From: a virus
UHGV virus genome: UHGV-0098743
Direction: 5' to 3' (one strand)
Length of the DNA stretch: 12,455 nucleotides
The first letter of the stretch is position 1. Every line of letters starts with the position of its first letter. The notes beneath the pieces were generated by a model that saw only the letters and a list, made by a program, of their open reading frames with translations, searched no databases and was not told the DNA's origin. Made by a program: the position numbers and the translations under genes. This document shows positions 1 to 8,868 of this stretch, one piece after another.

Positions 1-28
1 TGTGAACTGGTCGTTCTGACCATCAACG

Positions 29-52
29 AAAAAGCCCACATCTGTGGGCTTT
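29..52 (-). terminator. Putative Rho-independent terminator in the flank beyond the ssrA-derived att core
   Basis: Inverted repeat gcccaca/tgtgggc (34-40 and 43-49) flanked by an A-run (29-33) and TTT (50-52); on the minus strand this reads as a stem-loop followed by TTTTT. Could act in both directions. Confidence 0.4.
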
Positions 53-61
53 CATGTTACC

Positions 62-77
62 AGGAGCCGCGGCTCCT
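62..77. repeat. Perfect 16-bp palindrome AGGAGCCG|CGGCTCCT
   Basis: Read directly; the two halves are exact reverse complements and are followed by TTT. Function unknown (hairpin or protein-binding site). Confidence 0.3.
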
Positions 78-179
78 TTGCGTATCCTTTTATGTCTCCT
101 CACCGTCTGGTCGGTGTTTTGCTGAGACTTCTAACTTCCTGTTTTTGTTGGTGTTGTCCTTACACCGTCCAATCATGAT

Positions 180-223
180 TGGTGGGCTGGCGGGAGTTGA
201 ACCCGCGTCCGAAATTCCTACAT
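180..223 (-). other. ssrA: tmRNA (ssrA) 3'-terminal fragment: prophage attachment-site core
   Basis: The reverse complement reads ATGTAGGAATTTCGGACGCGGGTTCAACTCCCGCCAGCCCACCA, matching the 3' end of E. coli tmRNA as I recall it (ending CGGGUUCAACUCCCGCCAGCUCCACCA) apart from a one-base difference near the CCA end. Only about 44 nt are present; a full 363-nt ssrA would overlap the integrase ORF, so this is a partial att-core copy. Confidence 0.7.
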
Positions 224-317
224 ACCATTTTTAGCCTAATAAAAACATACATTTACTTTTAAAATCATCACGTTATTGTTTTTTGTATTTGTCGGGTTTT
301 ATGTGATTTTAAGTCTG

Positions 318-337
318 TGCCGCCAAAGTGCCGCCAT
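318..337. repeat. Tandem direct repeat GTGCCGCCA x2 (11-bp period) between the integrase stop and the att core; candidate Int arm-type site
   Basis: GTGCCGCCA at 318-326 and 329-337, read directly; the position in the att arm next to the int 3' end. Function is inferred. Confidence 0.25.
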
Positions 338-340
338 AAA

Positions 341-1366
341 TTAACGGTTCCAGTTGAGATTGTGAAGCGGGTTTTTTGTCACTGCATCTTCCAGGTGGTC
401 GGGTGCGAAGTGGGCGTAAATCATTGTCATTTTAATATCGGCGTGGCCCAGAATATCGCGCAGTACCAGTATATTTCCGCCGTTCATCATAAAATGACTG
501 GCGAAAGTATGGCGCAGAACGTGGGTGCATTGGCCCTCTGGCAAGTCAATGCTTGCCCGCTTGACTGCACGCTCAAAGGCTTTTCTGCATGGCGTGAATA
601 ACTTCCCTCGGTTCTTTGGTAACTCGTCATACAGCGCCTGAGATATAGGAACCGTTCGGTTTTTCTTGCCCTTTGTTTTGGTGTAGGTGATTCGGTATTT
701 AGATAACTGATGGCCCTGCAGGTTTTCGGCTTCACTCCAGCGGGCGCCGGTAGCTAAGCAGATTTTTGCAATCATGAGCAGGCTGGGGTTTTCTGAATCA
801 GCGCAGGCATCCAGCAGGCGTTTAATTTCTTCCGGCGCCAGGAACGCCAGTTCCCCCTCTGCGATTTTAAATGTTGGAAGCCCGGCGAGTGGGTTGGGGG
901 CTGACCAGTGGCCCAGCTTTTTCAGCGTGCCAAAAACTGATGATAGGTTGCGTTGTTCAAGGTTTACCGTGCGGGGCTTAACTGGCGACATAGGCAAGCC
1001 ATCTTCATTTTTGACTTCACCTTTTAGGCGTGCTTCACGGTATTTTGTAAAGTCACCGGCAGTCAGCTCCGAGGCAATGGGATCACCCAGGCCATTACAA
1101 ATAATGTTAAGTTTTGCCATCAGGCGCTTGGGGTCAGCAAGAGTCTGTCCGTAAAGTGAATGCCACTGCTTAATTACTTCTGACAATTGGCGCCGATCAT
1201 CCTTTTCGCCTAGCCATGGCTTTTTGTTCACTTCATCCATTGTGAAGTTTTCGAATGCTATGGCCTCGCCTTTCGTCGCAAATTGCTTGCGCACGCGCTT
1301 GCCATCGCGCCCGCTAGGGTAGCACTCACACAACCATTTCCCGTTTGGCTGTTTTCTGATGGTCAT
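341..1366 (-). CDS. int: Tyrosine recombinase / phage integrase (P2 Int-like), 341 aa
   Basis: Full-length ORF; the C-terminal catalytic region has HVLRHTFASHF and LGHADIKMTMIYAHF (R-H-R-Y signature of tyrosine recombinases). Lies next to the ssrA-derived att core and is transcribed toward it, as in P2/186-type prophages. ATG at 1366..1364. Confidence 0.93.
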   Translation of the reverse strand: MTIRKQPNGKWLCECYPSGRDGKRVRKQFATKGEAIAFENFTMDEVNKKPWLGEKDDRRQLSEVIKQWHSLYGQTLADPKRLMAKLNIICNGLGDPIASELTAGDFTKYREARLKGEVKNEDGLPMSPVKPRTVNLEQRNLSSVFGTLKKLGHWSAPNPLAGLPTFKIAEGELAFLAPEEIKRLLDACADSENPSLLMIAKICLATGARWSEAENLQGHQLSKYRITYTKTKGKKNRTVPISQALYDELPKNRGKLFTPCRKAFERAVKRASIDLPEGQCTHVLRHTFASHFMMNGGNILVLRDILGHADIKMTMIYAHFAPDHLEDAVTKNPLHNLNWNR

Positions 1367-1367
1367 A

Positions 1368-2000
1368 TCAAAGGCTCTTAATAACTTTTAAGACGTGGCC
1401 TACAACCTCGATATCATCCAGGCTGCACTCAAAAGATGATTCATCTTGATGAACTACCAATCTGTTTCCGGGGATACGGGTTAACTTCACAATACTTTTT
1501 ATTCCATCAATATCGACCAACCACACCCCATTTACTGGTGGTGTTTGGCTGCGATCCACTAGGTATGAATCACCACCGGTATTTACTAAGAGTAAGTTAC
1601 TGGAATTGGAAGGAAGCAAGCTGCTGTCAATGATTGCTTTACCTGTATCCACCAAAGAGCCGCTAGAAAGTGTCACTTTGTCAATTTCGGGAGAAACAAG
1701 GTCAGAAAGGTGTTTAACTTTGCCGGAGTTCACGAAATTGATATCTTTTTGCATGTCAATGTTTGAACCCGGCTCGCCTTGCCCTGTGGTAAGCCAGAGT
1801 AAAGAAACGCCTGTCTCAAGAGCGCACTGAATTACCCATTCTGCAGGGAAACTATCTCTTAAGTATCTGTTTGCCATGGTGCTTTTAGATGCGCCAAGAT
1901 GGTCGCACAATTGCTGTCTTGATTTGAAATCGTAGGCTGCCATTAGCCTATGGATGGCCTCTCTACCCCCGGTGTTCTCGCCTGTCTTTACTTGTATCAT
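1368..2000 (-). CDS. cI: CI-like immunity repressor (phage 186 CI type: N-terminal HTH, C-terminal S24-peptidase-like fold), 210 aa
   Basis: N-terminal segment QQLCDHLGASKSTMANRYL looks like an HTH. The C-terminal half has the topology of lambda CI/LexA C-domains (GGDSY, VKL, VVGHVLKV). Its stop lies 1 nt from the int start (cI-int operon) and it is divergent from the cox/cII operon. Whether the Ser/Lys dyad is catalytically competent cannot be judged by eye. Confidence 0.8.
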   Translation of the reverse strand: MIQVKTGENTGGREAIHRLMAAYDFKSRQQLCDHLGASKSTMANRYLRDSFPAEWVIQCALETGVSLLWLTTGQGEPGSNIDMQKDINFVNSGKVKHLSDLVSPEIDKVTLSSGSLVDTGKAIIDSSLLPSNSSNLLLVNTGGDSYLVDRSQTPPVNGVWLVDIDGIKSIVKLTRIPGNRLVVHQDESSFECSLDDIEVVGHVLKVIKSL

Positions 2001-3951: not shown

Positions 3952-4808
3952 GCACTATTCTGAAATGGGCGGGAAATAAAACCTCCATCATGCCGGAACT
4001 GATTAAGCATCTTCCTGCTGGCACGCGACTGGTTGAACCTTTCGCGGGTTCATGCGCTGTAATGATGGCGACAGACTATCCTCATTATCTTGTCGCGGAT
4101 ATTAACCCAGACCTGATAAATCTTTTTAAGCATATTGCATTTGACTGCGAGAAATTTATTTCAAATTCAAAAGGATTCTTTTCAGGCACAAATAGCGCTG
4201 AGTCTTATTACAACATCCGTCAGGATTTTAATCATTCGGCTGAAACCACCGATTTCTGGAAAGCTGTATTTTTCCTTTATCTTAATCGCCATGGTTATCG
4301 TGGGTTGTGCCGCTATAATTTGAGCGGTCATTTTAATGTCCCTTACGGTAATTATAAAAATCCGTATTTTCCTGAAAGTGAAATACGCGCTTTTGCAGAA
4401 AAGGCTCAACGCGCAACGTTTATCTGTGCCAGCTATGACGAAACACTGGCGCTGCTGCAGGCTGGTGATGTTGTTTATTGTGATCCGCCATACGATGGCA
4501 CATTTAGCGGTTATCACACTGCCGGTTTTACAGAAGACGATCAGTATCATCTGGCGTCTATTCTTGAGCGCCGGTCATCAGAAGGTCATCCGGTTATCGT
4601 GTCCAACAGCGACACGTCCCTGACCCGTTCGCTTTATCGTAATTTTACCCGCCATCGCATCACTGCAAAGCGCAGCATGGGTGTGGCTGCCGGCGAGAGT
4701 AAATCTGCAGCAGAAATCATCGCCACAAAATCAGCTGGCTGGTTTGGTGTCGATTTGGCGTCCGGTCCAGATATCTCGGTGGAAACTGAGGTGCGGGCGT
4801 GGCAGTGA
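3948..4808 (+). CDS. dam: DNA adenine methyltransferase (Dam-like, N6-adenine, D12 class), 287 aa
   Basis: N-terminus [38 protein letters not shown] parallels E. coli Dam (LKWAGGK...LVEPFVGAGSV); catalytic motif [15 protein letters not shown] (DPPY). ATG at 3948 overlaps the upstream stop (ATGA). The six-frame ORF starting at 3834 is an in-frame upstream extension and is unlikely to be the true start. Confidence 0.9.
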
Positions 4809-6238
4809 GTAAATTCACATTACATAATGCACCAACCACCGGCGGCTCGAATGAGGCCGCCGTGGCCTTTTCATGGAATAACCCCAAAAAAGCGGTTAAC
4901 CCATATCTGGACCCGGCGGAAGTTGCGCCGGGGTCTGCGCTTTCAAACCTGATTGCTCTTTACGCTGCGGATAACGAGCAGGAGCAGCTGCGCCGTGAGG
5001 CGCTGAGCGATGAGGTCTGGGAACGCTATTTCTTCAATGAATCCCGTGATCCTGTCCAGCGCGAAATGGAGCAGGACCGGCTGATTAGTCGTGCCAAAAT
5101 GGCGCGCGAGCAGCAGCGTTTTAATCCCGATCTGGTCATTCTGGCTGACGTTAACGCCATGCCGTCCCATATCAGCAAGCCTCTGCTGGAGCGGATTAAA
5201 TATTTCCATAGCCTGGGCAGAGCAAAAGCCTATTCCCGCTACCTGCGCGAAACAATTAGGCCCTGTCTTGAGCGGCTGGAGCGCGTGCGTGACAGTCAGG
5301 TGTCTGCCTCTTTCCGGTTCATGGCAAGTCATGACGGGCTGGAGGGGCTGCTGGTACTGCCTGAAATGAATCAGGATCAGGTCAAGCGTCTTTCCACGCT
5401 GGTTGCGGCTCATATGAGCATGTGTCTTGATGCGGCCTGCGGTGATCTGTTTGTCAGCGACGATGTTAAACCAGAAGAAATCCGCCAGGCATGGGAAAGG
5501 GTTGCAGCAGAGGCGATGCGCCTTGAGATCATCCCGCCTGCGTTTGAGCAGTTACGCCGCAAAAAGCGTCGACGCAAGCCGGTGCCCTATGAACTGATCC
5601 CACCGTCGCTGGCGCGGATGCTGTGCGCGGACTGGTGGTATCGCAAATTGTGGCAGATGCGCTGCGAGTGGCGGGAGGAACAGCTGCGTGCTGTCTGCCT
5701 GGTCAACAAAAAAGCGTCCCCGTATGTCAGCTATGAAGCCGTGATCCACAAGCGCGAGCAGCGCCGCAAATCGCTGGAGTTCTTCCGCTCACATGAGCTG
5801 GTCAACGAAGACGGTGACACGCTGGACATGGAAGACGTGGTGGCGTATGTCCGCAACAACCCGGATAAGCTGCACCTTTTCGTTGATAACGGCTCACTGG
5901 TGGCAACCGGTGCCAGCTCTATGTCATGGGAATACCGCTACACCCTGAACGTTGTGATCGAGGATTTCAGCGGCGACCAGAATCTGCTGATGGCTCCCGT
6001 GTTGCTGTGGCTCAGCGAAAATCAGGCGGACGCCATCAACAACCCGGAGCTGCGCGAAAAACTGTTCACCTTTGAAGTGGATATTCTGCGCAATGATGTG
6101 TGCGATATCAGCCTGAATCTGCAACTGACGGAGCGTGTACTGGTCAGCACTGACGGCGGTATCTCAACGGTTGAGGCGGAGCCAGAACCCGACGAGCCAG
6201 AAGAAATGTGGACGGTGAAACGTGGAAAATCTGCATAA
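4799..6238 (+). CDS. Hypothetical protein, 479 aa, in the position where P2/186 carry replication gene A; function unknown
   Basis: Long ORF with host-like codon usage, GTG start overlapping the dam stop. I could not find a Walker A, HUH or other catalytic motif. Contains the basic stretch [17 protein letters not shown] and an acidic C-terminal tail [11 protein letters not shown]. Its stop overlaps the S-like gene by 17 nt. Confidence 0.7.
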
Positions 6239-6724: not shown

Positions 6725-7582
6725 CTATGAAATTAGTGATATTTTTTGATTGTAGTAATCATAATCCGCATGTTCTTCAGTAAAGAATAATTCAAAAGCC
6801 GTTAGCATATTTGAATAAAAACTATCTTTTGATATTGCAGTTTTTCTCTCATTTTTAGCTAAGTAATTGGTTATGAATCTTAATGATGCTGAGAATAGAA
6901 AGTGCCCCTTTATCCAATGCGTTATGCAAGTGTTGGCAGGAAATTGAATGTTGTTTTTTTCTGCTAACCCTACATTTCTGAAATCATCAGGAAGGGTTTG
7001 AATATAAGCATTTATCTTATCTTGACATGTTTTGTAAGAGTTTTTTGATTGCATAAATCTATCGCATGAATCACCTACTACGGAATAGCCACGCTGATTT
7101 AAATGATTGTAAATATCTAAGGCAATTAGGTCTTCAATATTGTTATAAAACTCTAATAGCCAGGAGTTTATATTTATTCCTTGGATTTCTTTGGCACTGT
7201 ATCTTCCCATGTGTTTTAACACACGGGATAGGACTTTCTCATCGACTATAGTATTTTCAATTGAGTAACCTTTTGTATAGATGATGTTTGTATGATTTAC
7301 TAAGTTGGATGAAAAATGATTCAGATCTGCATCGCGGGCAACAATTGCGTTTATTTGTCCTGATGTGATTCGCTCAATATAAGGTTCTAATGCTTCACAC
7401 CCTCCAACTTCTTGCACTTCAACACTTAGTCGACCATTTTTTTTGAAAACTATTTCCCAAAATCCAATATCATCCTCACCTTCAACATATACCATGATAT
7501 CAGCATCATAAAACATGCTGATAACATTTTCCGCCTCGTCAGACCAATTAAAGTTATCTGTTCGAATCTCATTATTGGACAT
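6725..7582 (-). CDS. ariB: DUF4435/TOPRIM-like (OLD-family nuclease-like) protein, AriB-like effector candidate of a PARIS-type defence pair, 285 aa from ATG 7582 (alternative GTG start at 7612)
   Basis: N-terminal motif MVYVEGEDD followed by AIVARDAD, i.e. the acidic E...DxD arrangement of TOPRIM/OLD nuclease domains. AT-rich codon usage. Its start overlaps the upstream ATPase gene stop by 11 nt (ATGTCCAATAA). Domain identity is from memory of family motifs, not a search. Confidence 0.75.
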   Translation of the reverse strand: MSNNEIRTDNFNWSDEAENVISMFYDADIMVYVEGEDDIGFWEIVFKKNGRLSVEVQEVGGCEALEPYIERITSGQINAIVARDADLNHFSSNLVNHTNIIYTKGYSIENTIVDEKVLSRVLKHMGRYSAKEIQGININSWLLEFYNNIEDLIALDIYNHLNQRGYSVVGDSCDRFMQSKNSYKTCQDKINAYIQTLPDDFRNVGLAEKNNIQFPANTCITHWIKGHFLFSASLRFITNYLAKNERKTAISKDSFYSNMLTAFELFFTEEHADYDYYNQKISLIS

Positions 7583-8825
7583 TGACAAGTTTCTCCATGT
7601 TAAAAATTGCACTCCTGTATTTTGAAGCTACTTCTGGAGAATGTGTGGCAGCTATTACTTGTGCATTGGGATTGAGTTTTTTGATTGCTGGGATAATGTT
7701 TCTTTGCCATTGAATATGTAGGGAGAGTTCAGGCTCATCTGTTAGGAAAATATATTGTTTTTCTCTTTGTAATAGGGTTTCTATGAATAAAATAAGTAAT
7801 TGCTTCTCACCTGAAGATAAATTTTCCTGAATTATTGGTCCGTAAGTATTCTTTATGGAAAGTATTCCGCCTTGAAAGTCAAATTCCTTATCAGTAATAA
7901 ATTCTTTTAAAATACTTAAAAATTGTTCAATGGGAGCGAAAACTAAAGATGTTTTTTCTTTAGATTTTAAAGACATTCTAATTATTTTTTGTGTCTTTCT
8001 TAGCGCTTCAATTGAGCGGATGTCAAAACCATCTTTTTTATTTTGTTTTAATTCTGCAATGGTGTGATCAATAGTGTCAACATGGAAATTTATTTTCCGA
8101 CGGACATTCATATCAATAGCGTTTAGTTGTGTGTACGCACTTAAAAGGTTTTGTTTTTCTTCCTCCTTGTTAAATTGAATGTTGTACGCCTTATCATCAA
8201 TATCATCTTTACTATATAGAATAGATGCTAAAACTTCTTTTTGAAGTTCTAATGCAATATCTCTCGCTCGTTGAGATAATTCAAGTTGATATTTTGTTAA
8301 TTCCTGCATTAATTCTGATAGTTTATAATCGACAGGGTTGATAAAGCGAGAGCCGTATTTGTCTCTAACCTCAAAGTCGTCACTATTCCTTAGTCTATAG
8401 ACGGATAAAGATGAGAGTGAAACCAGTTTTGCTAATTCTGCTCTTAACTCCTCAGTCTCTTCTTGTGCTCTGCGTCTATAACTGAGGGAGATTCTTCTGT
8501 CATCGGCGTTGAATAGTCGGATGGTATGTTTTTTTGATGAAAGTTGATACTCTATTTTAGAGAACGGTGATGCATCACTCTCGATTTTCTTAATTTTTAT
8601 TGTCTTAGTTTTCTTTTTGTCCTTTAGTTTTATTTCGGCACTATTGAAATCATTGTTGTTAATGCCATCAAGGTCAATTGATAAAATTGAATGCAAAATA
8701 TTCATAAAAGTTGTTTTGCCGGTTCCATTCCTTCCAATGATGATGTTTACATCATCATTAAAAGAGCAAAGAGCATTTAATCTTTGCCAAAAACCATTGA
8801 TAGCGATGCTTTGTATTTTATACAT
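7572..8825 (-). CDS. ariA: ABC-type ATPase (AAA_15/AAA_21, OLD/SMC-like), AriA-like sensor candidate of a PARIS-type defence pair, 417 aa from ATG 8825 (TTG at 8828 possible)
   Basis: Walker A GRNGTGKTT near the N-terminus; a long insert domain; C-terminal ABC signature-like SSGEKQLL, Walker B IFLTDEPELSLH and H-loop ATHSPEV. Strong RBS AAGGAG 7 nt before the ATG. AT-rich. Confidence 0.82.
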   Translation of the reverse strand: MYKIQSIAINGFWQRLNALCSFNDDVNIIIGRNGTGKTTFMNILHSILSIDLDGINNNDFNSAEIKLKDKKKTKTIKIKKIESDASPFSKIEYQLSSKKHTIRLFNADDRRISLSYRRRAQEETEELRAELAKLVSLSSLSVYRLRNSDDFEVRDKYGSRFINPVDYKLSELMQELTKYQLELSQRARDIALELQKEVLASILYSKDDIDDKAYNIQFNKEEEKQNLLSAYTQLNAIDMNVRRKINFHVDTIDHTIAELKQNKKDGFDIRSIEALRKTQKIIRMSLKSKEKTSLVFAPIEQFLSILKEFITDKEFDFQGGILSIKNTYGPIIQENLSSGEKQLLILFIETLLQREKQYIFLTDEPELSLHIQWQRNIIPAIKKLNPNAQVIAATHSPEVASKYRSAIFNMEKLVNVQ

Positions 8826-8868
8826 CAACTTACTCCTTGTTTTGGTTGAGTCGAACTTATCAACTGTT

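Follow-up and report, generated by a model that had tools for sequence, protein, structure and literature searches.

A displaced ssrA 3′ fragment lacking T357 lies beside the integrase gene of a defective 186/Fels-2-type prophage

The DNA studied here, a stretch of 12,455 nt that was analysed over its whole length (from here: the window), carries close to its left end a short segment that resembles the 3′ end of ssrA, the gene for tmRNA. The segment lies beyond the stop codon of a phage integrase gene and differs by one base from the ssrA terminus of E. coli. This arrangement raises the question of whether the segment ends a working tmRNA gene or is a displaced copy, from where the one-base difference originates, and what it would mean for a host cell if the adjacent prophage were to leave. 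The features on which the following argument is built are compiled in Table 1.

Read on the minus strand, window positions 223..180 are ATGTAGGAATTTCGGACGCGGGTTCAACTCCCGCCAGC-CCACCA, 44 nt in total. In E. coli K-12, CS5L, GDSC2227PM, 23CRST047 and HH107, the annotated ssrA ends in ...ATGTAGGAATTTCGGACGCGGGTTCAACTCCCGCCAGCTCCACCA; with the extra T, the same 45 nt read ...GCCAGCTCCACCA (five annotated E. coli strains). The fragment matches 44 of the last 45 nt of ssrA and is interrupted by a single one-base deletion, located between window positions 186 and 185. Counted on a full-length ssrA of 363 nt, with CCAGCTCCACCA as the T-containing and CCAGCCCACCA as the ΔT end, the deletion removes T357, which as U357 pairs with G3 in the acceptor stem. 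A permissive search with the Rfam tmRNA covariance model returned a 5′-truncated match (E = 1.5e-11), which at 32 bits stays under the gathering score and has its alignment gap exactly at U357 (CCCGCCAGC-CCACCA versus the consensus CCCgCCacCUCCACCA). The fragment consists of an exact run of 38 nt plus 6 further matching bases, and chance origin is ruled out. All 5,426 of the 5,426 E. coli genomes searched by BLAST gave a match to the ssrA-fragment segment. The initial annotation had described the segment as a 44-nt tmRNA 3′ end on the minus strand with a one-base difference from the E. coli terminus; both statements are supported by the alignment and by Rfam, and the E. coli end that it gave, CCAGCUCCACCA, agrees with the annotated ssrA genes. 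The distance to the integrase stop codon, estimated there at about 120 bp, was measured as 117 nt.

Neither ARAGORN nor Rfam at the gathering threshold found a complete tmRNA in the 12,455-nt window. With no tmRNA gene present and phage arm DNA located 5′ of the fragment, the possibility that it forms the functional end of ssrA was rejected. As phage arm DNA, in place of the ssrA body, borders it on the 5′ side, the fragment is a displaced copy, a pushed-aside chromosomal tail that is part of no tmRNA gene. The earlier suggestion that the difference would be harmless in a displaced copy is consistent with this neighbourhood, but holds only while the prophage stays in place.

On the side facing away from the integrase gene, the fragment is continuous with host chromosomal DNA. 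Window positions 1-193, from the ypjA stop codon through CCGCCAGC-CCACCA, are 100% identical to E. coli K-12, and the annotated ypjA of CS5L ends at the position aligned to window position 19. The intergenic flank that follows is the same, base for base, as the K-12 sequence beyond the right end of CP4-57, and in many genomes it stands directly after the annotated ssrA. This flank contains a hairpin with its stem at 33-39/44-50 and T-runs on both strands, which was read from the sequence and not listed by the consensus scan. A perfect 14-nt palindrome, CCAATCATGATTGG, at 169-182 extends across the CCA end of the fragment and into the native ssrA trailer, and is found with every copy of the native flank.

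On the other side, the fragment lies within an attachment site. The att core measures 45 nt in the window and 46 nt in copies containing the T. The adjoining arm is conserved in the attP of MLG42 and SEN8 as well as in the attR of CS5L, and is absent from ssrA and from the K-12 flank. In the free phages, Yersinia phage vB_YpM_MLG42 and Salmonella phage SEN8, an arm, the 46-nt ssrA core, a terminator and a further arm succeed one another next to int, and this arm-core-arm arrangement of attP matches the window junction in the alignment. The presence of the same core beside int in both attP sites supports the earlier proposal that the 3′ end of ssrA serves the element as att core. In PMC3448106, Fels-2 and SopEPhi are cited as ssrA integrators.

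Within the window, GTGCCGCCA occurs in exactly two copies, 11 bp apart and both inside the att arm; when one mismatch is allowed, 6 matches are found versus 3.7 expected window-wide, hence the relaxed motif is not enriched. For the arm repeats of 186-type integrases the consensus tgccGCCActt was published (PMC3448106), and by their match to it the two copies are predicted to be arm sites of a 186-type integrase. A tandem repeat in this arm had been noted before at 318-337; the repeat itself exists, but its copies occupy 317-325 and 328-336. The other arm, in the attL of CS5L, holds three copies in the same sense, TGGCGGCA/TGGCGACA/TGGCGGCA. Right after the CCA of the rebuilt ssrA, a G+C-rich stem-loop of the phage with a T-run, AAGGGGTTACGTGAAAACGTAGCCCCTTTTTCTTT, was observed (CS5L attL, locus L002, 12780-12826), and the same stem-loop is found in loci L004, L005, L006, L007 and L008. 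It looks like a phage-borne terminator replacing the native ssrA trailer.

Table 1. Features of the 12,455-nt window that bear on the ssrA junction and the adjacent prophage
Feature	Position	Strand	Basis
ypjA 3′ end, adhesin-like autotransporter (...VNWSF; TGA 17-19), host chromosome	1..19	+	CS5L alignment, K-12 identity
Native intergenic flank, follows ssrA in island-free E. coli	20..179	.	K-12 identity
att core, block that also occurs in attL, the junction on the ssrA side, in this prophage type	179..223	-	attR/attL/attP alignment
ssrA 3′ fragment, displaced; tmRNA nt 319-363 minus T357	180..223	-	Sequence alignment, Rfam
Integrase-proximal att arm, A/T-rich phage DNA	224..340	-	attP/attR conservation
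Two direct GTGCCGCCA repeats, predicted 186-type integrase arm-binding sites	317..336 (317-325, 328-336)	+	Consensus match
Tyrosine integrase, 186/Fels-2 type, 341 aa; stop codon 341-343	341..1366	-	Pfam, identity
CI-type immunity repressor	1368..2000	-	Pfam Phage_CI_repr, Phage_CI_C
Apl/Cox-like regulator, excisionase candidate, 82 aa	2120..2368	+	Intact ORF, positional homologue
Replication gene A (first half) fused in frame with tail-completion gene R	4799..6238, joint near 5842	+	Pfam, BLAST
AriB, DUF4435 protein	6725-7612	-	PADLOC 9e-23
AriA, AAA ATPase	7572-8828	-	PADLOC 1e-36

The integrase gene adjoins the att core and is transcribed toward it. Its product belongs to the P2/186 family, with Pfam matches to Int_N (5.6e-28) and Phage_integrase (3.4e-23), and is identical to the protein of CS5L at 341/341 amino acids, to that of MLG42 at 332/341 and to that of SEN8 at 324/341. 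A P2-type Int acting on an ssrA-derived core had been expected at this locus; the geometry is as anticipated, while the enzyme is of the 186/Fels-2 type and not P2 proper. The positional homologue of the Apl/Cox-like ORF is apl in MLG42 and the excisionase in SEN8, whereas a Pfam search with its 82 aa gave no match. The int and apl-like ORFs are both full length. CII and further genes follow the Apl/Cox-like gene, and the window ends in tail-fibre genes. DNA identity to MLG42, SEN8 and Fels-2 amounts to 85-91% from int through the early genes, and the element is a 186/Fels-2-type prophage of the Peduoviridae.

This prophage is defective. In the fusion ORF, Phage_GPA is matched by aa 193-356 and P2_Phage_GpR by aa 348-464, and the BLAST alignment breaks at 5839/5842; the joint was compared with positions 25843 and 36578 of CS5L. 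Relative to CS5L, ~10.7 kb are missing, comprising the rest of A, dinI and the genes for portal, terminase, scaffold, capsid and lysis, and the joint carries a microhomology of 4-5 bp (GGTG). Replication, head and lysis genes were lost. Judged from the PADLOC matches, the AriA and AriB genes located among the prophage tail genes (6725-8828) appear to form a PARIS-type anti-phage defence pair. None of the complete E. coli genomes searched matches window positions 1-400 exactly, the best match being 98%, and the whole window is covered by any of them to at most 78%.

The other end of the prophage lies outside the window and was followed in relatives. The initial annotation had anticipated a full ssrA gene at the far end of the element and had proposed to look for smpB nearby. 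In CS5L, GDSC2227PM, 23CRST047 and HH107, an intact ssrA was found at the ogr end with smpB next to it, and the int end adjoins the fragment in all four of these complete genomes, with ypjA beyond it in CS5L, 23CRST047 and HH107. In the annotations of S1 and GDSC2227PM, the integrase carries the protein accession that it also has in CS5L. In 23CRST047 and HH107, attL contains the T and is fused to full ssrA with smpB, and attR is ΔT and stands beside ypjA; in CS5L and GDSC2227PM, which carry the same prophage, the displaced copy contains the T. The exact 84-nt hybrid junction is present in six complete genomes, and ~7 more have the ΔT together with one SNP. Going by these relatives, the ogr end of the window prophage would be joined to an intact ssrA.

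The right end of CP4-57 in K-12 carries the same CCGCCAGC-CCACCA on the same flank, where it is annotated as the pseudogene psaA; the remnant of ssrA there comprises only ~19 nt, ACTCCGCCAGC-CCACCAA. Both MLG42 and SEN8 contain the T in their attP, and no ΔT att core was found in ~28 phage records with the core, most of them from other hosts. Since the T is present in these phages and window positions 1-193 equal K-12, the possibility that the phage brought the deletion was rejected. The missing T is the known chromosomal ΔT357 allele, as found at the CP4-57 right end of K-12. Up to 587 of the 5,426 complete E. coli genomes contain the ΔT 39-mer together with the native flank; the T version was counted in up to 1,542, many of these being ssrA without an island. 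CP4-57 excision joins the ΔT tail to ssrA, yielding ssrA ΔT357 with the end CGCCAGC-CCACCA (PMC10107115). The resulting tmRNA ΔU357 is inactive in vivo, has no tagging activity and is synthetically lethal with ΔarfA; it should remain uncharged, the G·U pair being the identity element for alanyl-tRNA synthetase (PMC10107115). Recurrence of this scar across several species and integrase types was tabulated in the same study (PMC10107115).

The exact ΔT 24-mer GGTTCAACTCCCGCCAGCCCACCA was also observed in 12 species-representative genomes, with the genera Providencia, Paraglaciecola, Motilimonas, Enterovibrio, Leclercia, Atlantibacter, Citrobacter and Enterobacter represented besides E. coli. In loci L016-L021, a CP4-57-type left end comes after GGTTCAACTCCCGCCAGCCCACCA. 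In E. coli ECDA1023 (locus L014, 5531-5891), ARAGORN reported a full tmRNA gene ending in the ΔT tail. In TUM1887 (locus L024, ~46210-46310), a Fels-2-like arm leads into a ΔT core and then into a CP4-57-type left end (CGCCAGC-CCACCAAAATTCTCC).

The best explanation, very probably the correct one, is that the window contains the junction on the integrase side (attR when read along ssrA) of a Fels-2/186-like Peduoviridae prophage in the 3′ end of an E. coli ssrA gene. The phage attP would bring 46 nt that duplicate the ssrA 3′ end, together with its own terminator. On integration, the phage copy would complete a working ssrA beside smpB at the opposite, ogr end, and the old chromosomal tail would be pushed to the int end, beside the native flank and ypjA. 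The 5′ part of the fragment is phage-side and includes CTCCCGCC (CTCC-GCC in the K-12 remnant), and its 3′ part is the ΔT tail of K-12. A junction composed of these two parts is predicted by CP4-57-type excision of a P4-like island located between a Fels-2-like prophage and ypjA. We infer that the phage would have integrated between ssrA and a resident CP4-57-like island, giving a tandem array, and that the island would later have been lost by its own site-specific excision with a crossover in GCCAGC just 5′ of T357, joining the phage-side 38 nt to the ΔT tail. Entry of the phage, a tandem array and then loss of the island is the most likely course of events.

Such tandem arrays exist. GDSC2227PM and S1 carry the same prophage followed by a P4-type integrase, and the order Fels-2-like arm, core and CP4-57 left end is found in at least 5-11 genomes. 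Among the four arrays inspected (GDSC2227PM, S1, CUWW06 and TUM1887) none retains an intact distal ΔT remnant. In all four, ypjA is missing and the stretch past the P4-like integrase is rearranged or shortened; GDSC2227PM simply has no ypjA, and IS1 or IS3 elements border the shortened outer island of S1, CUWW06 and TUM1887. The ΔT before a CP4-57-type left end in the TUM1887, Enterobacter and Leclercia loci is not predicted by the simple history, and in the case of TUM1887 a one-off scar fixed to the ypjA flank would not predict it either.

The same end product would result if only the order of events were different, that is, if the phage had entered an ssrA that was already ΔT357 after excision of a CP4-57-like island, repairing tmRNA with its wild-type tail. 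This order is possible but the less likely one, and we consider it rather improbable. The final structure would be identical to that observed, full-length ΔT ssrA is known from ECDA1023 (L014) and DTU-1, and the succession of Fels-2-like arm, ΔT and P4-like left end in TUM1887 and in Enterobacter (locus L020) is what integration into a ΔT attL would be expected to give. However, this order needs a tmRNA-deficient intermediate as well as a crossover 5′ of T357, whereas the tandem arrays, as intermediates without a fitness cost, are seen in the genomes counted above. An empty-site ssrA with ΔT357 and the native flank occurs in a single one of the 5,426 complete E. coli genomes, that of the laboratory strain DTU-1 (NZ_CP026612.1, 4278395-4278483), which argues against a long-lived ΔT ssrA intermediate.

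Two further explanations are each highly improbable. The T might have been lost de novo, by neutral decay in the displaced copy after integration and independently of the K-12 allele; such a copy is under no selection and one-base deletions are common mutations. Against this stand the 100% identity of the flank to K-12 over 193 nt, with the same deletion there, and the wide distribution of the allele; moreover, no copy examined shows a change at any of the other 44 fragment positions, and random decay would not repeat the loss of the same base. The recurrent loss of one base with the remaining fragment unchanged is not explained by simple decay. The other explanation places the prophage in the ssrA remnant at the outer end of a CP4-57-like island, with the island located between prophage and ssrA. 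It draws on the far end of the prophage lying beyond the window and on the flank being that which follows CP4-57 in K-12. Nevertheless, two-thirds of the 46-nt core, namely the 5′ part in which the crossover is expected, are missing from the K-12 remnant, ssrA stands directly at the ogr end in both inspected genomes with the exact hybrid junction (2/2), and no tandem array seen has another element closer to ssrA than the Fels-2-like prophage. That the missing T, a single-base indel, is a sequencing or assembly error can practically be dismissed, as the site lies outside any long homopolymer, K-12 MG1655 and hundreds of assemblies made independently share the same allele, and the ΔT allele was verified experimentally (PMC10107115).

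While the prophage stays integrated, the ΔT is harmless in place. Excision by Int and Apl with a crossover 5′ of T357 would transfer the ΔT tail to ssrA, which would then lose the G3·U357 identity pair of alanyl-tRNA synthetase and be inactive, as shown in the CP4-57 experiments; excision of this prophage would thus probably disable tmRNA. In elements that integrate into tRNA or tmRNA genes, the shared block usually starts near the crossover and runs to the end of the gene. Here the 5′ boundary of the att core is located 38 nt upstream of T357; this boundary and the precedent of the P2-type integrase of Shewanella putrefaciens favour strand exchange by this Int 5′ of T357, which we consider somewhat more probable than the opposite. 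Were the crossover 3′ of T357, excision would leave ssrA intact.

More tentatively, the ΔT357 tail could be a persistent and transferable allele of the ssrA hotspot, acting as a tmRNA off-switch or addiction module through whichever element supplies the good tail; we hold this to be conceivable, though not probable. The defective Fels-2-like prophage would then have inherited the switch that CP4-57 holds in K-12. Such a role is consistent with the occurrence of the same deletion in at least 12 species representatives, with its two contexts in E. coli (the native flank and P4-like left ends), and with the unchanged remainder of the fragment in all copies examined. Taken together, these observations would favour site-specific recombination as the route of spread, or selection, over decay. 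Curing a prophage of this kind would be expected to shift ribosome rescue from tmRNA to ArfA, and a check of ssrA is advisable when such strains are engineered or cured. For annotation, the analysis defines the left boundary of a defective Fels-2-like prophage, explains the tmRNA-like fragment and identifies the apparent mutation as a known allele.

Both the integration of Fels-2-type phages in ssrA and the ΔT357 scar with its effect were already established (PMC3448106, PMC10107115). The sole addition made here is that in some E. coli a 186-type prophage instead of CP4-57 precedes the ΔT tail; in ~13 complete genomes such a prophage lies between a working ssrA and the ΔT357 tail. The closest known systems are the phages of the Fels-2 group. 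As in the window, int and cI are oriented leftward and apl, cII and the genes through A rightward in Fels-2 and SopEPhi (Felsduovirus). Over int to the early genes, the SEN8/Fels-2/MLG42 group shares 85-91% of its DNA sequence with the window, and 95-97% for the integrase. Repeats of the 186 type in the arms and a ~46-nt ssrA 3′ core in attP are likewise common to both, as is the placement of int beside the displaced fragment and of ogr beside the working ssrA, the ogr end being taken from relatives of the window prophage. In contrast to that group, the window copy lacks ~10.7 kb, is defective and carries the PARIS pair. Enterobacterial P2-type examples are tabulated as non-mutating (PMC10107115); in Table 1 of that study, Fels-2 and SopEPhi are listed as leaving ssrA unchanged, whereas the attR of the window lacks T357.

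CP4-57, a P4-like cryptic prophage of K-12, resembles the window in occupying the site between ssrA and ypjA, in the identical ΔT357 tail and flank, and in being a defective cryptic element whose removal is expected to leave CGCCAGC-CCACCA and to abolish trans-translation (PMC10107115). The two differ in the integrase, which is of the P4 type in CP4-57 and of the 186/P2 type in the window, in the core (~20 nt versus 46 nt for the window type, the place of the crossover probably differing as well), and in the control of excision, exerted by AlpA in CP4-57 and by Apl/CI in the window prophage. The outcome of excision was demonstrated for CP4-57, while the window prophage is known here from its sequence. 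A P4-type IntA under AlpA control, the combination found in the switches of E. coli and S. oneidensis, is absent from the window prophage, which has a 186/Fels-2-type Int with CI and Apl. It is not a member of the CP4-57 family, though it may work in the same way. A precedent for a P2-type integrase is Shewanella putrefaciens W3-18-1 (Liu et al. 2019), for which Table 1 of PMC10107115 lists integration at ssrA and the excision scar CGCCAGC-CCACCA, in another genus and by another phage than the prophage described here.
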